DNA of 15,493 nt from positions 1 to 15,493 of the forward strand of contig JAEOTB010000026.1 of NCBI GenBank assembly GCA_016840065.1, written 5' to 3'. A program made the translations under genes and the position numbers. The notes below the pieces were generated by a model. It saw only the letters and a program-made list of their open reading frames with translations, was not told where the DNA came from and did no database searches. Below, piece by piece: positions 1 to 15,492 of the stretch. Origin of the DNA: Candidatus Hermodarchaeota archaeon (GTDB lineage Archaea; Asgardarchaeota; Hermodarchaeia; Hermodarchaeales; Hermodarchaeaceae). Numbering within the stretch: position 1 is the first letter of the stretch; the number at the start of each line of letters is the position of its first letter.

Positions 1-2
1 AT

Positions 3-1784
3 CAAGGTCCCTACATCAATGATCTCGTCTTCAGCTTTTATCATGGCGCCGATGCACAATGGGCAGCGTTGACAGACGGTGTTATTGATGCTGGTAATGA
101 ATTAGTAGTACCCGTGGCTAGATCTGACATACAAGCTGATCAGATAGAAACTGACGCTTTCTGGGGAATTGCTTGTAGCACACACGACGATGAATACTTT
201 GTAGAGGAACCTCCCTACGGTATACCACTGTTTGAACTAACTGGCTGGCCGCTGAACCATCTTTCCCTTCGCAGAGCAATCGCAATGGCAATCGACAAGA
301 CATACCTAGCCGAAAGGTGTTTTGGCGAGCACGGATTCGCTACTGATCATATAATACCACAAAGCTTTGGTGCGTGGCACAATCCAGAACTCCCTGTTGA
401 CCATCGTTCTGGTGATCTTGCAGGTGCTATTGCTCTATTAGATGCTGCTGGTTTTGTAGATCGTAATAGCGATGGTTATCGCGACGCACCTGACTCGGAT
501 GACGAAGTAAACATCAATTTCTTCTATACTCCAATTGAACTAATGAGTAAAGAGGACTCACATTCGATAATCGCGACAAATACGACGATAATAGCAGAAT
601 ATGTCGGTGAGGTTCTAGGTAATCTTGGTTTTATGTACACCCTCAATCCAGTGACCTCCCAAAGCCTATACTATCTTACCCATCTAGGAACACGGGGCTA
701 TCACTTAGCTCTGGTACCTTTCTATCTCCCAGAACATACACCATTTTTCTTAGACGACCTATTCTACAGCTGGAACATTCCTTACACCAATTACTTCAAT
801 TTTGACAACGAAACCGTTGATGGTCTCCTTGAATCGCTTAATGTTACCTACGAGTACCATGAATTCAAGGATTATGTTTGGGACATCCAAGATGCCCTAG
901 CTTTGAATCAGCCGCTCATCCCTCTAATCAGCAAATACACCTTCATCGCGCATCGAACAGACAGATTCGACCATTGGGTGAACACACCTAGTGCTGGCTC
1001 ATCAAACCATTGGTCCTTTCTCCAGGCTCGCTTGAAAGCTGACCAAATCGAACGAAACCCAATTTCAGGAGTAGGTGGTACAATGGACTTCGGACTCAGT
1101 AATGCACCTGACACCCTAAACCCAATGTTGGTATCAGTGGATGATTCGTGGTTGGTGCTGGACTCGATTTATTCCCGCCTTGTAGATGAACATCCCAGCA
1201 CAATTGAAGCAATTCCTAACCTTGCTCGTAGCTGGTATATTGAACCCGAGGGTGGCGGTCTGAAGCTGACATTCAACCTAGTTGACAATGCCACATGGCA
1301 CGACGGAATCAGCTTCTCTTCTTCCGACGTGAATTTCACCTATCATTACATAAACAGCTTACCCGATCCCTGGCCCTTCAGCTGGCCGAAACCACATCTG
1401 GAATTTACATCAATCGATGTTATAAACAACATAACTATTGCAATTCACACTCCCCTCCAAAATTATCTATCTATCTTAGAGCTTGTTAACCAAGTCATTC
1501 TTCCAGAGCACATTTGGGAGGGGATTATAACCCCCCTTGTCTTTACTAATCCAAGGCCAGTTGGCACTGGACCATTCCGATTTAAATCCAGACCCGAAAC
1601 AGGTCTAGTATTCCTTGAATACTATGAGGATTATCATTACGGGTTCTCTGGCGCTCGTCAGGAACTGGTTTATGTTGATGTTCCACTTATGACTTGGCTT
1701 GCATCAGGTAGTTTCATTATTATCATGGTAGCCGTTGCTGCGTTTTGGTATCTCCGTCGACGACCTCATGGTTTTGAGCCCTAG
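3..1784 (+). CDS. Family-5 (Opp/Dpp/Nik-type) ABC solute-binding protein, circularly permuted, C-terminal TM anchor; 5'-truncated by window edge
   Basis: The frame is open from nt 3 (QGPYINDLVFSFYHGADAQWAALTDG), aligning with EGPYINDLAFYFYHGADAQWSALVDG of the downstream paralogue, so TTG at 69 is not the true start. Family-5 motifs: LRRAIAMAID, PDTLNP, PNLARSW, TFNL..NATWHDG..FSSSDVNFT, ILPEHIW, PVGTGPF. Ends in a hydrophobic helix plus RRRPHGFEP. Confidence 0.9.
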   Translation, partial: QGPYINDLVFSFYHGADAQWAALTDGVIDAGNELVVPVARSDIQADQIETDAFWGIACSTHDDEYFVEEPPYGIPLFELTGWPLNHLSLRRAIAMAIDKTYLAERCFGEHGFATDHIIPQSFGAWHNPELPVDHRSGDLAGAIALLDAAGFVDRNSDGYRDAPDSDDEVNINFFYTPIELMSKEDSHSIIATNTTIIAEYVGEVLGNLGFMYTLNPVTSQSLYYLTHLGTRGYHLALVPFYLPEHTPFFLDDLFYSWNIPYTNYFNFDNETVDGLLESLNVTYEYHEFKDYVWDIQDALALNQPLIPLISKYTFIAHRTDRFDHWVNTPSAGSSNHWSFLQARLKADQIERNPISGVGGTMDFGLSNAPDTLNPMLVSVDDSWLVLDSIYSRLVDEHPSTIEAIPNLARSWYIEPEGGGLKLTFNLVDNATWHDGISFSSSDVNFTYHYINSLPDPWPFSWPKPHLEFTSIDVINNITIAIHTPLQNYLSILELVNQVILPEHIWEGIITPLVFTNPRPVGTGPFRFKSRPETGLVFLEYYEDYHYGFSGARQELVYVDVPLMTWLASGSFIIIMVAVAAFWYLRRRPHGFEP

Positions 1785-1851
1785 TAATTCATCTTTCTCA
1801 AGCGAGAGATTGGTGGCAAAAGCCTGGTATTGAGTTTTGCAGATTTAGTTA

Positions 1852-1908
1852 TTCTTAAAAGATTCCACTTCAAGTTCAAGTCATTCGCTTTACTTGATCA
1901 TTGTGGAG
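1852..1908 (+). promoter_or_regulatory. Putative TATA-like box and Shine-Dalgarno for the second solute-binding protein
   Basis: TTCTTAAAA at 1852-1860, and GGAG at 1905-1908, 8 nt before ATG 1917. Confidence 0.4.
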
Positions 1909-1916
1909 ACAATATC

Positions 1917-3899
1917 ATGGTAACGTCTAATTCTATAAAACGCTTATCAAATAGCCGACAAAGACGCCGTGGCCTCTATCTAGCCGTTTGCCTAGTGTTC
2001 TGTGGTTCTCTTATTATCGGATCAAACATCGCTGCAGCAAATGGCTCAGCGATTCCTCGCCAAATCCTATCCAGCTTCTCATACGAAGGTCCATATATCA
2101 ACGACCTAGCATTTTACTTCTATCACGGGGCAGACGCTCAATGGAGTGCCCTCGTCGACGGAGTGATTGATGTCGGTAACGAGTTGATTAACCCAGAAGA
2201 GGCATCTGAAATCGACTGCGATGAAATAGTAGCCGATGCATTCTGGGGTATAGCTTGTAGCACACACGATGACCCCTTCTTCTTCGAAGAAGACTACTAC
2301 CCAGACACTCCTGTACCGCTACCAATATCTGGGTGGCCTCTAAACCACCTCCCCCTCCGCCGGGCAATTGCAATGGCTATCGACAAAGAGTACTTGGCTG
2401 ATATAAGCTTTGAATACGGTGTTGCCCTAGATCATGTTGTTCCTGAATGCTTTGGTGAATGGTCAAATCCTGACCTTCCCTCTGATTACCGTTCAGGCGA
2501 TTTAGAAGGAGCTAATACCCTTCTTGATGATTCGGGCTTCGAAGACCGCAACGGCGACGGTTATCGCGACGCACCAGACTCAGACAACGAAGTAAACATC
2601 AACCTCTTCTATGCGCCACTCGAGTGGTATCCAAAGGCTGATAGCCACTCTGTGCTCTTGACAGACAACAACGTAATCGCTGAATATATCGGAGAAATAC
2701 TAGGTGAGCTAGGCTTCCAGTATACGGTTAACCGGGTCCTACCAGAAGTCCTCTATTACATAACTCACTACGGAACTCGTGGTTATCATTTAGCGCTTAT
2801 TCCTTTCTTCCTCAAGGGTCTTCATCTCAATACTGGAACCCGTCCAATAACCATTCCTCTATACATCAAAGACTGGTTCTATTCTTGGAGTATTCCATAT
2901 ACGAACATCTTCAATTATGATAACGAGACCTGCGACGCAGACATTGAGGCTCTCGACACAACTCCTGATTACAATGACTTCAAGGAGCTAGTATGGGATA
3001 TTCAGGAAAATGTTGCTGAGAACCAGCCAATAATTCCTCTCATAACTACCAAAGTCTTCACCGCTCACAGGAATGACCGCTTCGAAGAATGGGTTAATAC
3101 ACCCTATATTGGGTCATCAAACTACTGGTCTTTGCTCCAAGCTCGACTGAAATCTGGTCAACCCGAGGCTAATTCTATCTCAGGAGTTGGAGGGGCGATG
3201 GACTTCGGCCTTACTGTAGCACCCGACACTCTTAATCCCATTCTGACCTCAGTTGAATCGTCATGGTTGGTTCTTGATGCCATCTATTCACGCCTCGTAG
3301 ACAAACAACCTCTTACAGATGAAGCAATACCGAATCTCGCCCGAAGCTGGATAATAGAACCTGAAGGCGACGGGCTCAAACTGACCTTTAACCTAGTAAG
3401 TAATGCTACATGGCACGATGACACGCCTTTTACCTCTTCTGACGTGAACTTCACTTACTACTATATCCGGGATCTACCTGGTCCCTGGCCTGTCAGGGAT
3501 TCTAAGCCTGTGCTGAACTTCACTTCAATCGACGTAATCAACAATGTTACAATTGTAATCCATACACCACTAAACGGATACAACAATTTCATCGAGTTGG
3601 TGAATATACCCATACTCCCAGAGCACATCTGGAAGGATATTCTCCAACCTGTATATTTCACTAATCCCCGACCAGTAGGTACAGGTCCATTCCGTTTCGT
3701 ATCCAGACCTGAACCTGGAATAATCTTTCTAGAGTACTTTGAAGAATACCACTTTGGGTTTCCTGGTGCTCGTCAGGAAATAGTATACGTCGATGTTCCT
3801 CTTCTCACTTGGCTTGCAGCTGGGTCTTTTGTGATAATCATGACAGCCCTTGCCGCGTTTTGGTTCCTTAGAAGGCGCCCACACGGATTTGAACCATAG
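1917..3899 (+). CDS. Family-5 ABC solute-binding protein, circularly permuted, with signal peptide and C-terminal TM anchor (paralogue of upstream gene)
   Basis: ATG at 1917 is preferred over TTG 1830: GGAG at 1905-1908 precedes it, and it begins a basic n-region (RQRRRG), hydrophobic core and AAA-type cleavage region. Same family-5 motifs as the upstream gene, collinear with it over the full visible length. Confidence 0.92.
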   Translation: MVTSNSIKRLSNSRQRRRGLYLAVCLVFCGSLIIGSNIAAANGSAIPRQILSSFSYEGPYINDLAFYFYHGADAQWSALVDGVIDVGNELINPEEASEIDCDEIVADAFWGIACSTHDDPFFFEEDYYPDTPVPLPISGWPLNHLPLRRAIAMAIDKEYLADISFEYGVALDHVVPECFGEWSNPDLPSDYRSGDLEGANTLLDDSGFEDRNGDGYRDAPDSDNEVNINLFYAPLEWYPKADSHSVLLTDNNVIAEYIGEILGELGFQYTVNRVLPEVLYYITHYGTRGYHLALIPFFLKGLHLNTGTRPITIPLYIKDWFYSWSIPYTNIFNYDNETCDADIEALDTTPDYNDFKELVWDIQENVAENQPIIPLITTKVFTAHRNDRFEEWVNTPYIGSSNYWSLLQARLKSGQPEANSISGVGGAMDFGLTVAPDTLNPILTSVESSWLVLDAIYSRLVDKQPLTDEAIPNLARSWIIEPEGDGLKLTFNLVSNATWHDDTPFTSSDVNFTYYYIRDLPGPWPVRDSKPVLNFTSIDVINNVTIVIHTPLNGYNNFIELVNIPILPEHIWKDILQPVYFTNPRPVGTGPFRFVSRPEPGIIFLEYFEEYHFGFPGARQEIVYVDVPLLTWLAAGSFVIIMTALAAFWFLRRRPHGFEP

Positions 3900-4048: not shown

Positions 4049-4585
4049 TTGTTGAGGAAAAGTGAATTGCCGGAAGAATCGGAACCTTGGATTGTGGTGG
4101 TCCGAGGTGAAGCAGAAGGTGTTGAACAGCGTGTCGCAATTGATTTCGAAGACACTGAACTATTCTTCGGTTCGAAAGGTTACGCTGTTAGCCCAAACTT
4201 CGTGAAGCGCCTTCTTGCTCTTGTTCGAAAAAACGAACACTGGGTAATAAAGACAATTATTGAAGATATTCGTACACCCGAAACCACACCCTTTCCATTG
4301 GTAACTCCTCTCTTTGTATTACTTAGTCGCAGCCATCCTCGCGGGCTTTCAGCTGGAGCTCTTTTTATTGCCCCCGATGATTCTTCCTTATCTCAAACCT
4401 CCTCAGTGGAGGTAGGTAGTGCTGAACGATACAATCTTGTGGGGCTTTCACCTATCGGCTTCGCTGCAGCATGTGCTGATGATGTCCGACTATTTGCACG
4501 GTTCCTAGCCCGATTACTCAAGCACCCTGAAGCCTTTCAGGAGGTATCACTCCTTCTCCCCAGAAGTGCTGCAACACCAGATTAG
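4049..4585 (+). CDS. Hypothetical soluble protein (about 172-178 aa)
   Basis: Fills the gap between the terminator and the convergent methyltransferase, whose stop it abuts exactly. Alternative start TTG 4067 follows TGAGGA (4053-4058). No motif recognised. Confidence 0.7.
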   Translation: MLRKSELPEESEPWIVVVRGEAEGVEQRVAIDFEDTELFFGSKGYAVSPNFVKRLLALVRKNEHWVIKTIIEDIRTPETTPFPLVTPLFVLLSRSHPRGLSAGALFIAPDDSSLSQTSSVEVGSAERYNLVGLSPIGFAAACADDVRLFARFLARLLKHPEAFQEVSLLLPRSAATPD

Positions 4586-6363: not shown

Positions 6364-6984
6364 CTACTCAGCTATGCTCTTCACAAGTCGGCTAGTATAT
6401 CGGTTAATGGCAGCTGAGAGAATCTGTAGTATAAGGCAAGTGATGATTGCACCTAGGGCAACGTACGCCGCGATGATTCCCCACTCGAAGAGAAGTTCAC
6501 CGGTTAGACTGTAGTTTAAGAGAAAAGCAGTACCCATCGGACTAAGCCAGTATTTCCAGAAAAGGTAATAGGCATAAATCCCGCCACAAAGTCCAAAACA
6601 TACTGCTCCACCGAACAAGAGGAGAATAGTCTTCGTAGCTGGAGTGCTCGTCTCTATCTGTTCATGCTCTTTTCCAATGATGAAGTTTCTCACAGATTTA
6701 TGTGAACGTAGGAAGAATCCTAGAAAAGCGATGAAAACAAGGAAGGTAACTCCGCCACCAAAAAGAAGGGCAAGGATGAGAATATCAGTATAAACACTTA
6801 ACGCATCATAAATACCAGTGATTATCAGAACAAACATAACTCCTTCGCCCAGCAGAACTAGAAGAGAAATCAGTTGTAATGCGAATGTACCACTTGCGAT
6901 GCTACTGAATACACGTTTCATGTTGAATGTGTCTTTTTCAGGCAAAACTATCCCAACTTTAGCATGGTTTCTAATGTTTAACAT
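6364..6984 (-). CDS. Hypothetical integral membrane protein, about 4 TM helices
   Basis: Four hydrophobic segments separated by a polar loop (RSHKSVRNFIIGKEHEQIETST). The true start may be ATG 6921 (MKRVFSS). Confidence 0.8.
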   Translation of the reverse strand: MLNIRNHAKVGIVLPEKDTFNMKRVFSSIASGTFALQLISLLVLLGEGVMFVLIITGIYDALSVYTDILILALLFGGGVTFLVFIAFLGFFLRSHKSVRNFIIGKEHEQIETSTPATKTILLLFGGAVCFGLCGGIYAYYLFWKYWLSPMGTAFLLNYSLTGELLFEWGIIAAYVALGAIITCLILQILSAAINRYTSRLVKSIAE

Positions 6985-12994: not shown

Positions 12995-14380
12995 TTAACG
13001 CTTGCGCCGACGTCGTCGAACAAGGAAGACAGCGCCCAGACTAGTAGCCAAACCTATACCAATAGCCTCAAGCGGGAAGCCAGGAATCGGTGGAGGAGTC
13101 GTAGCTTGTCCTATATTCGAATATGCCGTATACGTAGGATCGTGTTCAATCCTGTAACCGTGACACTCACTGAATGATGTAGCATACCAGAACGCCCCAG
13201 CTCCAAAAGTGGTATTAGCATTGTTGTAAAGGTCAAGTGGTCCGGAGAACGTACTCTGTAGATAGGGGCTCATGGCATACGCGAAGACACTGAATAAATC
13301 TGCGGAGAAAGGCAGTTGCCAGCCAACAAGTAAGAGATCAGTTAGGGTCGGTGTGACAACACTAGTATACGCAGGTAAGCTAGAGTTAATAGTGGTGTAG
13401 GGTGGTCCTACGTGGCCAGTTTCGTTGAGTACGTCATATGTACCTCGTGTGCCTACAGCAAAGGCGCGGGCACCTCCAGCTGTTACATTCGCGAACATCC
13501 AGTTGGTTGCATTACTGGGAGTAGTGCTACCGAGGGTTGTTTGGTATTGGGAAGCGAAGATGACAACAAAGTGGGCGGCACCAACCCCGATTCCATGAAG
13601 CGCATCCAGAGGATTAGGAACTTCGATTCCAAACCAGTAAGCTTCTTGAATCTGGCCAATGGTGTAGTAGGTTTCCGCAGTGATTTCTCCAGTAGCCGTA
13701 TCAACCTCTACGTCATACGTCACTGTGAATTCGCTGAAAGTCAATTCGAGAATGGGAGCAAAGAGTGTTACCCAGAACGCAGCCCAGTTGTTTGCAGCTA
13801 CTACGCGCATGGTGAGGTTCGTGTAAGTAACGCCAAACTGGTAGTGTCCATCACTGATTTTTGTAGCATCGATAGCTTCAACAGTGGGAGTGTGTTGTGA
13901 GTTACCTGTATCGACTCCGTAGGGAACCAAGAACCAGCGATCCTCCCCCGCGTTGGGGTATCCGTTCTCGGTTGTGTCGTTCCAGGCATACAGAAATGCG
14001 AGGAGCGCTCCTACGAAGATATCTCTTCCGTTCGGAGTCGTGAAGTGGAGGCCGAAGAGCTGATACGGGAGAGTCATATTGCATGGGTTTGTCCCATTGA
14101 CTTCGACCATACCAAGCGTTACAAGCATCGCTTGGAAACTACCCACAGGTGCCGAGTAGTTCACATAGCTTGCCATGAAGTTCGCTGTGCCGTTTGGTGT
14201 CTCAATTGGTACCGTGTCATCTGTCCAGTATTCCTCACTGAAATAGTGCCCAAATAGCGAATATTCGCTTCCTGGGGTCCATGTGCTTGGTGGTAGAGCC
14301 TTAGAAGTCGTTGGTGAAAGACCGAGTATCATTGAAAAGAAAAGTAACGCTATGCAAGCAATTTTTGTAGTCCTATTCAT
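12995..14380 (-). CDS. Secreted cell-surface glycoprotein with PGF-CTERM-like anchor
   Basis: Signal peptide MNRTTKIACIALLFFSMILGLSPTTSKA; 11 N-x-S/T sequons counted in the mature part; IEHDPTY just before a Thr/Pro linker; C-terminus IPGFP + TM + RRRRRKR. Confidence 0.88.
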   Translation of the reverse strand: MNRTTKIACIALLFFSMILGLSPTTSKALPPSTWTPGSEYSLFGHYFSEEYWTDDTVPIETPNGTANFMASYVNYSAPVGSFQAMLVTLGMVEVNGTNPCNMTLPYQLFGLHFTTPNGRDIFVGALLAFLYAWNDTTENGYPNAGEDRWFLVPYGVDTGNSQHTPTVEAIDATKISDGHYQFGVTYTNLTMRVVAANNWAAFWVTLFAPILELTFSEFTVTYDVEVDTATGEITAETYYTIGQIQEAYWFGIEVPNPLDALHGIGVGAAHFVVIFASQYQTTLGSTTPSNATNWMFANVTAGGARAFAVGTRGTYDVLNETGHVGPPYTTINSSLPAYTSVVTPTLTDLLLVGWQLPFSADLFSVFAYAMSPYLQSTFSGPLDLYNNANTTFGAGAFWYATSFSECHGYRIEHDPTYTAYSNIGQATTPPPIPGFPLEAIGIGLATSLGAVFLVRRRRRKR

Positions 14381-14559: not shown

Positions 14560-15492
14560 TTAACGACGACGTCGAATACAAACATAGAAAGTGACAACAA
14601 CCGCAAATACCACGATTGCACCAATAGCTGCATAAACAAGTAGGATCAGTAGGGGAATGCCTGGTTGAGTTGTAGTAGCAGCGTTGTCAACAGTTACTGT
14701 GATAGTGTCTGTGGCTGTAAGTCCCAAATTGTCCCAGATAGTGACATTAATAGTGTAGTCACCATTGGACGAGTCGGGAGTATTCCAGAAATAGGCATAG
14801 GGGGAAGTTGTATCGTTCAGGACTAATACTCCATTGAGGCGGAACTCCACTCTTTGAATGCCACTGCCAGGATCGCTAGCTGAGACTGTAACATCAACCG
14901 AACCACTGATTGTTGCACTGTCAACTGGATTAGAGATTGATATAACTGGGCTGACGTCATCGCCCACAATGTAGCTGTAATAGCTACCACCGTTATCATC
15001 GATTCGCAAATTGTCCTTGTTATCTGTCGCATTAATGTAGTACTCAGCTAAGGAACTCCAGGCCTGTGCAGGAATCTGTCCTTCATATGTGTCTGAGACA
15101 TTTGACATAATTATCTGCTGCCAAGGACCACTGTTGATTCGATAGTTAAGCGACACATTCTTCATTCCAGCTAATGCGTCAACTACATCTGCAGAGACGT
15201 CTACGATATCATAGTACATCACTGGAGTAGGAGAATGTCCAACCAAGCTTATTGTGGGTGGCGTCAAGTCAGTTACAGTGTAGTTCCAGAAAGCGCCGTT
15301 ATCTAAAGCGATGGTTACCATTGGCCAAGTATCATTAGCAGTGAAGAAGTATTCAACAAAGGTGCCGTTGGCTTGAGCAGGAATGGTTGAATTGTAGGTG
15401 ACCCCAGACTGCTGTAACATCGTACTATTCTGCCATGCTCCGCCACCAATACGATAATGGAAGAGTGCTGTGTCGAGGTCCTGTTCATACAC
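14560..15492 (-). CDS. C-terminal part of a membrane-anchored surface protein with tandem Ig/FN3-like domains; 5'-truncated by window edge
   Basis: Two related beta-rich repeats (YRI..G.WQ...M....Y...IPAQA.....EY...A.D......DNG...Y.V), then a bacterial-Ig-like domain (D..SPVISISNP...ISGSVDVTVSASD..SGIQRVEF.LNG...PY...WNT...NG.YTI.V...D..G...TITVTVDN), then TTTQPGIP + TM + RRRR. The frame is open to the window end. Confidence 0.9.
   Translation of the reverse strand: MYEQDLDTALFHYRIGGGAWQNSTMLQQSGVTYNSTIPAQANGTFVEYFFTANDTWPMVTIALDNGAFWNYTVTDLTPPTISLVGHSPTPVMYYDIVDVSADVVDALAGMKNVSLNYRINSGPWQQIIMSNVSDTYEGQIPAQAWSSLAEYYINATDNKDNLRIDDNGGSYYSYIVGDDVSPVISISNPVDSATISGSVDVTVSASDPGSGIQRVEFRLNGVLVLNDTTSPYAYFWNTPDSSNGDYTINVTIWDNLGLTATDTITVTVDNAATTTQPGIPLLILLVYAAIGAIVVFAVVVTFYVCIRRRR

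Follow-up and report, generated by a model that had tools for sequence, protein, structure and literature searches.

Two adjacent genes of a Hermodarchaeota archaeon encode natural circular permutants of the family-5 (cluster C) solute-binding proteins, in which the C-terminal portion of the ordinary fold, about three-fifths of it, precedes the N-terminal two-fifths. The genes, here called A and B, open the stretch of 15,493 nucleotides that was analysed (the window; Candidatus Hermodarchaeota archaeon, GenBank assembly GCA_016840065.1, contig JAEOTB010000026.1). A first-pass annotation, made from the sequence alone, had proposed such a tandem permuted pair and had predicted two partial matches to Pfam SBP_bac_5 in reverse order. 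Both genes gave exactly this pattern: PF00496 matched them at 121.2 and 119.6 bits (cut-off 32.4), in two stretches per protein and with the order reversed; the C-terminal part of the permuted protein matches profile positions 2-142. Similarly, a phmmer comparison with PDB sequences aligned residues 170-440 of protein P0002 to residues 265-522 of 6lzu, and residues 482-630 to residues 33-177. A profile built from 76 canonical proteins also matched in two swapped stretches (Table 1), while canonical controls in the same run gave one collinear match each. A single collinear N-to-C match was not obtained for A or B with Pfam, the PDB sequences or the canonical profile. Both segments derive from one parent domain and occur in reversed order within a single open frame, with the old termini joined, as in circular permutants in general. 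The swapped domain order is confirmed in both genes.

Table 1. Coordinates (nucleotides of the window) of genes A and B, their parts and their motifs.
Feature	Position	Strand	Basis
Gene A, permuted family-5 solute-binding protein	3..1784	+	ORF; PF00496 121 bits, two swapped stretches; 5' end cut by contig start
Gene A, segment I (canonical profile 220-522)	6..1019	+	hmmsearch with canonical profile, E 4e-31
Gene A, linker ARLKADQIERNPISGV, old C-terminus to old N-terminus	1026..1073	+	motif position; between both profile stretches
Gene A, segment II (canonical profile 33-219)	1074..1643	+	hmmsearch E 1e-41; Pfam profile positions 2-142
Gene A, C-terminal membrane helix (1686-1754) and predicted cytoplasmic tail RRRPHGFEP (1755-1781)	1686..1781	+	hydropathy scan, motif positions
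Gene B, complete permuted family-5 solute-binding protein, 660 aa	1917..3899	+	ORF; PF00496 120 bits; ATG at 1917
Gene B, putative signal peptide: RRR n-region, hydrophobic core (residues 19-36), AAA-NG cleavage-like site	1971..2045	+	read from sequence
Gene B, segment I (canonical profile 219-525)	2085..3143	+	hmmsearch E 3e-28; superposes on DppA 206-507
Gene B, linker ARLKSGQPEANSISGV, old C-terminus to old N-terminus	3141..3188	+	motif position; confident model across junction
Gene B, segment II (canonical profile 33-230)	3189..3794	+	hmmsearch E 4e-46; phmmer to 6lzu 33-177
Gene B, C-terminal membrane helix (3801-3869) and tail RRRPHGFEP (3870-3896)	3801..3896	+	hydropathy, motif positions
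Motif GPYIND, genes A / B	6 / 2088		
Motif RRAIAMAID, genes A / B	270 / 2358		
Motif NQP.IPL, genes A / B	906 / 3021		
Motif GG.MDFGL, genes A / B	1074 / 3189		
Motif PVGTGPF, genes A / B	1557 / 3672		
Motif GTGPF, genes A / B	1563 / 3678		

In gene A, segment I runs from the second part of domain I through domain III into the last strands of domain I; segment II starts with the first strand of domain I and continues into domain II and the GTGPF hairpin. The motif positions given in the first-pass annotation were all borne out in both genes. The 16-residue linker between the segments (ARLK..Q.E.N.ISGV) is conserved across the family (alignment A1). Gene B probably begins at ATG 1917, where the database protein P0003 begins, and not at the listed TTG 1830. 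The 5' truncation of gene A is due to a contig break and not to biology, since the start of the window overlaps the end of contig C119 by exactly 127 nt; C119 supplies the first ~57 codons of gene A, including its signal peptide. GPYIND stands where it had been placed, although it does not appear to be the mature N-terminus, as had been supposed: the mature chain probably begins ~15 residues earlier, after the signal-peptide-like AAA-NG site.

The products of both genes are predicted to be extracytoplasmic, on the basis of an RRR stretch followed by a hydrophobic core and AAA-NG at one end and, at the other, a 23-residue hydrophobic helix followed by RRR. A hydropathy scan agreed with the C-terminal membrane helix earlier assigned to each product. 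Only ~35 residues separate the GTGPF motif from this helix in genes A and B. W649, L651, R652, P655, H656 and G657 of gene B are each conserved in 90% or more of the 23 rows of alignment A1, where N496, part of an NATW sequon, is invariant; six N-x-S/T sequons occur in each gene. The dN/dS ratio is 0.083 for gene A against a Hermod orthologue (L040) and 0.087 for gene B against its own orthologue. Synonymous sites are saturated between A and B, which are old tandem paralogues.

An AlphaFold model of the gene B ectodomain (nt 2082-3815), made with an 88-row alignment, reached a pLDDT of 91.8 and a pTM of 0.90; a full-length model from 23 rows (pLDDT 67.9) was set aside. The C-to-N junction is modelled with confidence, with block pLDDT values of 92-97 over model residues 341-380. 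Because Foldseek and VIA-align are sequential, only the first 357 model residues were aligned; these superpose on residues 206-507 of DppA (1dpe) with a Z score of 25.4 and an rmsd of 2.4 Å over 295 residues (VIA-align), and also on AppA 209-520 and on the chitin-binding protein 187-528 (Z 25-27, 295-314 residues). The fit is far better to open 1dpe (2.4 Å) than to closed 1dpp (6.5 Å), thus indicating that this portion spans both lobes. The remaining 220 model residues, equivalent to canonical 1-205, were placed by the profile alone (E 4e-46), the global pTM being 0.90. The chain is cut at DppA 205/206: it begins at 206 and ends at ~205, just ahead of the membrane helix.

This position lends no support to the earlier proposal that the new termini fall near the interlobe hinge. 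With domain I limits that we take to be 1-33, 183-262 and 479-507 in DppA, residue 206 falls within the middle one of these three stretches, and ~57 residues separate it from the first lobe crossing further along the chain. New and old ends would all belong to domain I, so that the two-lobed flytrap with its two crossovers would be preserved, and the sole change would be the point at which the membrane tether leaves domain I. As the profile stretches overlap at positions 219-230, the C-terminal stretch ARQEIVYVDV was considered as a leftover duplicate of the first strand, GPYINDLAFYFY; this was rejected, since the match is too weak and that stretch is modelled as coil.

The permuted form is common in several Asgard lineages. 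It had been suggested that such proteins might exist unremarked in other archaeal genomes, and a taxonomic survey showed that they do: the same order occurs in each of the 30 best loci that a search of 400 genomes of the phylum gave, in the loci labelled Hodarchaeota and Thorarchaeota, and in 81 of the 150 best cluster representatives (1955 representatives matched with E below 1e-10). Overall, the swapped order was found in well over 100 proteins from independent assemblies, closed genomes among them. Proteins cut as in the window genes are termed type A, and those cut near profile position 363 type B. Type A was found in one of 135 genomes of the phylum's largest family, and paralogues are massively expanded, certain Heimdall-group genomes having at least 8 to 10 copies. 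An N-terminal hydrophobic segment is present in 66 and a C-terminal membrane helix in 65 of 76 type-A proteins. The spacer between fold and helix is a long Thr/Pro-rich linker and the tail a generic Lys/Arg one in most relatives outside the Hermod subgroup, whereas the short linker with a conserved RRxPHGF tail is confined to that subgroup, where the juxtamembrane segment is also nearly invariant. Permuted genes stand in tandem in groups of 2 to 6, and some proteins are fusions of several units, such as P0124 with the order C-N-C-N. In a FastTree phylogeny with several long branches, the type-A rows all fall on one side, the all-inclusive type-A split having a support of only 58; three proteins of canonical order (P0137, P0175 and P0262) are neighbours of type A. 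Type B, exemplified by P0176 (labelled Candidatus Culexmicrobium profundum) and L036, is cut inside domain III. When the literature was searched for natural permutants among family-5 or periplasmic binding proteins, only engineered biosensors and general remarks came up, and this branch of family 5 seems not to have been described.

Some relatives are genomically linked to transporters, as permuted genes adjoin OppB/C or OppB/C/D/F genes in five loci (L067, L070, L074, L076 and L048). Transporter genes are absent from the window, from 12 kb of upstream C119 and from 10 kb around the five closest Hermod homologues. The genome of the window does contain an OppB-OppC-OppD-OppF operon, at C123:12402-17567, which has no binding-protein gene, and its SBP_bac_5 matches are permuted genes only, in a fragmented metagenome bin of 131 contigs that is 84% complete with 5% contamination. 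We infer that the window proteins partner this operon. The DppA clamp for peptide termini consists of an Arg and an Asp, R383 and D436 of the E. coli precursor (PMC12136057). The corresponding columns hold A/T and K/L in genes B and A, and an Arg/Asp preference was not seen there across type A, the alignment being uncertain in these loops.

Judged from sequence, A and B most likely encode working receptors of an ABC importer, and their function is probably ordinary nutrient capture. We consider it likely that they are permuted cluster-C receptors, exported, anchored by a helix and feeding an Opp/Dpp-type translocator encoded elsewhere, and that they arose by tandem fusion. Each chain would start with a signal peptide and run from the DppA-206 point through domain III to the old C-terminus; the 16-residue linker would lead to the old N-terminus, followed by domain II and the GTGPF hairpin, which would pass straight into the C-terminal membrane helix. 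The exported receptor, held by this helix, may capture an oligomeric ligand (peptide or oligosaccharide) and hand it over to an ABC translocator of Opp/Dpp type encoded elsewhere in the genome, which several paralogous receptors would share. Tandem copies, which are the rule in this lineage, may have fused head-to-tail and then shed their outer portions. Such an origin is suggested by the arrays, by the C-N-C-N multi-unit proteins, by the existence of a second cut point with the same junction and by the one-sided tree.

A broader proposal, which we regard as tentative and rather doubtful, is that the Asgard family-5 branch constitutes a living record of permutation by duplication, with arrays, fusions, at least two cut points sharing one junction and possible reversions to the canonical order. 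The tether shift may be adaptive, for example by fixing the seat of a helix-anchored receptor above the extracellular inserts of Asgard OppC permeases, which are unusually large. The short spacer and invariant RRxPHGF tail of the Hermod subgroup may add a cytoplasmic interaction.

Of the other explanations, signalling instead of transport fares best, and is still unlikely. Closure of the lobes would act through the juxtamembrane stretch and the helix on a cytoplasmic partner that reads the conserved tail, a coupling already raised in the first-pass annotation. It would suit the orphan state of the Hermod-group genes, the near invariance of their tail and juxtamembrane segment, and the short distance from GTGPF to the helix; three more distant paralogues (contig C37) even carry a CxxC...CxxC tail behind the helix, one of which matches Pfam Zn_Ribbon_1 at 22.6 bits, below the cut-off of 25. 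However, a 9-residue tail is a weak signalling module, the new termini lie within domain I rather than at the hinge, and the same permuted fold elsewhere has long Thr/Pro-rich linkers with plain basic tails, several relatives residing in Opp-type operons. These observations argue against a general coupling of closure to the membrane helix, although such coupling is conceivable in the Hermod subgroup, given its short linker and conserved RRxPHGF tail. Moreover, orphan extra binding proteins that share one translocator are common in family 5, DppA1-5 of P. aeruginosa reportedly being an example.

A main role as an abundant, glycosylated component of the surface coat is more improbable still. The idea echoes the cultured Asgard archaeon P. 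syntrophicum, where a family-5 binding protein with N- and C-terminal helices, DSAG12_03090, has the top identification score and dominates the proteome and the N-glycoproteome, no S-layer protein having been detected (PMC11284389). The sequons of A and B, with the invariant N496, and the massive expansion of paralogues in some Heimdall-group genomes would be compatible with it. Against this, sequons equivalent to the P. syntrophicum glycosites N157, N398, N474 and N483 were found in none of the collected proteins or loci, type A is nearly absent from the phylum's largest family, the binding fold is under strong purifying selection and some members lie within transporter operons. Finally, the notion that wrong gene limits, a frameshift or a chimeric assembly joined neighbours of an ordinary tandem array can draw on the true tandem arrangement, the fragmented bin and a truncated copy on contig C126, and yet it has almost no credibility left, being ruled out by frames unbroken from signal peptide to membrane helix and stop codon, by an in-frame junction with a conserved linker, by the same order in independent assemblies including closed genomes, and further opposed by a dN/dS of 0.08 and a model confident over the junction.

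Cluster-C binding proteins are among the best-studied bacterial receptors and are widespread scaffolds for biosensors, and circular permutants of binding proteins have been engineered in the laboratory. In this archaeon all family-5 genes found in the genome are permuted. The permuted form is subject to strong purifying selection and has expanded to many paralogues in Asgard archaea labelled Hermod, Heimdall/Hod and Thor, which are believed to feed on peptides and other oligomers. Annotation pipelines, which see two partial matches, assign the generic name "ABC transporter substrate-binding protein". With this family, both the tolerance of a hinged two-lobe fold to rewiring and the route of duplication, fusion and truncation can be examined in natural proteins. 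A further question is how the geometry of the tether and docking to the translocator evolve together in cells that lack an outer membrane.

Canonical cluster-C proteins, represented by E. coli DppA (1dpe, 1dpp, 8z1z), B. subtilis AppA (1xoc), the Vibrio chitin-oligosaccharide-binding protein (1zty, 6lzu), NikA and OppA, share with the window proteins the PF00496 domain (~120 bits), the secondary-structure elements, probably the bilobed form with the extra domain II and, as predicted from sequence, the cell-surface location, and some relatives also share the genomic link to OppB/C/D/F-type permeases and ATPases. Unlike them, the window chains are permuted at DppA 205/206, and a conserved 16-residue linker connects their old termini. 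NCBIfam also gave two partial, reversed matches, and no equivalog reached its cut-off (the best, Opp4A, with 74 bits versus 650). As far as the uncertain loop alignment goes, the window proteins lack R383 and D436 of the DppA clamp, and their genes do not lie beside a transporter. Within the parent family other permutants occur: type B has the same C-to-N junction and a different cut point, and the bacterial L065 (an Alphaproteobacteria MAG), whose permuted gene is directly upstream of OppBCDF, is cut near DppA 265-270, by the domain I/III boundary. Archaeal Opp-class binding proteins, for instance the oligopeptide-class sugar-binding proteins of Sulfolobus and Saccharolobus, have a signal peptide and an anchor placed after the canonical C-terminus through a Ser/Thr-rich linker. 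They resemble the window proteins in the export signal, the C-terminal helix anchor, the likely N-glycosylation and the presumed use of Opp-type translocators, whereas the window-type anchor follows the GTGPF hairpin, at canonical ~205, the Hermod subgroup having a very short spacer and, after it, a conserved tail.

The swapped order of the family-5 binding proteins encoded by genes A and B is real and far beyond chance, as follows from comparisons with Pfam, with PDB sequences and with a canonical profile, and the permutation claimed in the first-pass annotation is thus borne out. Every motif on which that annotation relied lies at its reported position in the window, and the Pfam search that it proposed matched SBP_bac_5 to each window protein in two stretches, well above the cut-off and in swapped order, profile positions 2-142 being matched by the C-terminal 150 residues of both proteins. 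A PDB sequence search aligned residues 482-630 of the window protein P0002 with residues 33-177 of a Vibrio chitin-oligosaccharide-binding protein, and residues 170-440 with residues 265-522 of the same chain. A profile built from 76 canonical family-5 proteins (the usual N-then-C order) was matched by both window proteins at positions 219-525 and then at 33-230; canonical controls searched alongside them gave a single collinear match.

The two same-strand open frames take up nt 3-3899 of the window and adjoin each other, in the tandem arrangement already claimed. The window makes up all of contig C127, one of the 131 contigs in a metagenome bin of 2.59 Mb that is 84% complete, and its closest relatives are Hermodarchaeota-labelled MAGs at 81% identity. 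The exact overlap of 127 nt joins the window to contig C119, whose end provides the start codon and signal peptide of gene A (MVTSYSIYIHRLQNRKGTLYLAACLLLLGALVFG...), so that gene A is whole in the genome. For gene B, the most likely start is the ATG also used in the database protein P0003. The two proteins are 69% identical, and the same tandem pair occurs in a Hermodarchaeota MAG (L040). Orthologue dN/dS values of 0.083 for gene A and 0.087 for gene B, together with saturated synonymous sites between the two paralogues, point to an old duplication and to strong purifying selection on both copies.

Coordinates of the permuted genes and of associated features in the window, its genome (G000) and other loci
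Feature	Location	Strand	Remarks
Gene A	window 3-1784	+	open frame, 5' end beyond contig start
Gene B	window 1917-3899	+	660 aa from ATG at 1917
N-A-T-W ahead of WHDG	window 1287-1295 and 3402-3410		N-glycosylation sequon
Frame without Pfam match	window 4049-4585	+	178 aa
Frame without Pfam match	window 6364-6984	-	206 aa
Frame without Pfam match	window 12995-14380	-	461 aa
Big_7 and CBM_56-like domains	window 14560-15492	-	frame continues past contig end
Contig overlap	G000:C119:12128-12254		contig's last 127 nt, identical to window 1-127
Tandem permuted paralogues	G000:C37:3-5653		three genes (L004, L005, L007)
Partial permuted frame	G000:C126:8278-9282		335 aa, last half of permuted protein only
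OppB-OppC-OppD-OppF operon	G000:C123:12402-17567		complete, without adjoining binding-protein gene
OppC-type permease	G000:C123:14451-16562 (L118:2452-4563)		704 aa
Toroid-repeat gene	G000:C7:1-2303 (L117)		PF00432, 58 bits
Permuted tandem array	G072:C2:75000-94900 (L073)		six genes, unbroken
Family-5 protein with third cut point	L065:9122-10762		Alphaproteobacteria MAG

The full-length structure model was poor. For the ectodomain (window 2082-3815), an alignment holding 88 rows of permuted relatives gave a model with a pLDDT of 91.8 and a pTM of 0.90 that was confident over the junction of old C- and N-terminal parts. Sequential structure aligners placed model residues 1-357 on residues 206-507 of DppA in its open form (1dpe; Z 25.4, rmsd 2.4 Å over 295), 209-520 of AppA (Z 27.3) and 187-528 of a chitin-oligosaccharide-binding protein (Z 25.8). 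The same DppA stretch in the closed form (1dpp) gave Z 26.4 with an rmsd of 6.5 Å, and the far better fit to open DppA indicates that model residues 1-357 span both rigid bodies, the predicted state being open. Support for the second half, which corresponds to canonical 1-205, is confined to the sequence profile and the model's global pTM.

The cut maps between DppA residues 205 and 206. By the domain limits of DppA this point falls within the central stretch of domain I, past the GTGPF hairpin and ahead of the sheet strand that follows, about 57 residues short of the chain's first crossing to domain III. The mapping does not bear out the first-pass proposal that the new termini fall near the interlobe hinge; the Alphaproteobacteria protein of L065, different from the window's type (type A), is the one whose cut truly lies close to the domain I/III boundary. 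The accompanying idea, that closure is coupled to the membrane helix, fares no better as a family trait. In most relatives the linker is long and Thr/Pro-rich, and the tail is basic without further features. Among the 76 type-A proteins that begin with Met, 66 have an N-terminal hydrophobic segment and 65 a C-terminal membrane helix. The Hermod subgroup has a short spacer and a nearly invariant RRxPHGF tail, and the three C37 paralogues have a predicted cytoplasmic CxxC...CxxC tail behind the C-terminal membrane helix; a cytoplasmic contact specific to the subgroup is thus retained as an improbable rival. The function of permuted family-5 proteins is probably ordinary. The asparagine of the N-A-T-W motif in gene B (N496) is invariant over the 23-row alignment A1, and the motif lies near position 100 in canonical proteins versus about 430-500 in the window proteins.

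All SBP_bac_5 matches of the window's genome lie in permuted genes, namely A, B, the three on C37 and the truncated copy on C126. The C37 paralogues are about 32% identical to gene B, and Pfam Zn_Ribbon_1 scored 22.6 bits against one of them, under the cut-off of 25. The C126 frame, 67% identical to gene B and directly behind an unrelated 574-aa frame, is either truncated or the product of a chimeric assembly. Tandem arrays of up to 6 paralogues occur in some Asgard loci; the maximum was found in L073, whose genome belongs to the Heimdall-labelled family f10; paralogue numbers in further genomes of this family come to at least 8 to 10.

The permuted form is real and widespread, as had been guessed for other archaea. 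Of the 400 genomes searched in the phylum, 129 had matches at E <= 1e-10. In the window's family the matches extend to 17 of the 18 remaining genomes, against 1 of 135 in the largest family, and all 30 loci fetched are permuted alike. The same permutation was found in loci labelled Hodarchaeota and Thorarchaeota, in one short contig labelled Bathyarchaeia and in one "uncultured archaeon" contig; bacterial and Thermoplasmatota matches from the same search had the canonical order. Further named matches include records labelled Heimdallarchaeota, Hodarchaeales, Kariarchaeaceae, Hermodarchaeia and Thorarchaeota. Exhaustive searching of 1.84 billion cluster representatives yielded 1955 matches at E <= 1e-10, and among the best 150 of these 1955 the simple C-then-N order was present in 81 and the canonical order in 53. 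Full-text literature searches on natural permutants of binding proteins returned only engineered permutants and general remarks, and the one experimental study of an Asgard family-5 binding protein (PMC11284389) does not mention permutation; the form is apparently undescribed.

Other cut points also exist. In type B the cut lies close to profile position 363, within domain III. This type comprises eleven cluster representatives and the phylum locus L036, and its alignment to the window protein crosses the C-to-N junction unbroken, so this junction is common to both. In the L065 protein, residues 32-108 correspond to DppA 271-348 and residues 302-495 to canonical 40-220; its gene lies directly upstream of OppB/C/D/F genes. 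In a quick FastTree tree with long branches, built from segments restored to canonical order and aligned to the profile, one side of a branch held 80 of 80 type-A rows, three nested type-B rows and zero canonical rows (support 58 for all rows, 90 for 79 rows). Canonical P0137, P0175 and P0262 stood next to this group, followed by a clade of eight type-B rows, and the order labels took 5 changes versus 62 when shuffled. This topology agrees with a single main origin of type A and further re-cutting, tandem copies being frequent in the lineage. Giant metagenomic proteins (P0123, P0124, P0151, P0198, P0214) contain several head-to-tail family-5 units, some mixing permuted and canonical ones; P0124 (2427 aa) has the order C-N-C-N, and P0123 (4308 aa) holds both kinds in one chain.

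Window proteins reached no NCBIfam equivalog, and oligosaccharide binders are their best matches among PDB sequences. They do not keep R383 and D436, the clamp residues of DppA (PMC12136057). No Opp-type transporter genes were found downstream of gene B in the window, where the neighbours of the pair encode a methyltransferase, a radical-SAM protein, a hemerythrin-domain protein, an EamA transporter, an isochorismatase, an NAPRTase and an aminotransferase, nor were Opp genes found within 10 kb of the five closest homologues; an amidohydrolase gene lies upstream of gene A on C119. In 20 wider Asgard loci, sampled about 9 kb either side of the permuted gene, OppB and/or OppC were near it in five, adjoining in L067, L070, L074 and L076 and, for OppC, 2.6 kb off in L081; two of the five also have OppD and OppF. 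OppB/C/D/F are likewise close in the Hodarchaeota locus L048.

The OppC-type permease on C123 of the window's genome has about 450 residues between its OppC_N helix (18-63) and BPD_transp_1 core (515-700), a stretch that may form a large insert on the extracellular side, towards the receptor, and OppC proteins beside permuted genes elsewhere in Asgard are also long (about 500-540 aa). A second OppB-like permease gene lies on C7, and immediately upstream of it is a gene for a protein with prenyltransferase-type alpha-alpha toroid repeats, a membrane helix at the C-terminus and a poly-Lys/Arg tail. On the most economical reading, several anchored permuted receptors would feed the shared Opp translocator of C123; orphan extra binding proteins serving a shared translocator are seen in many bacteria.
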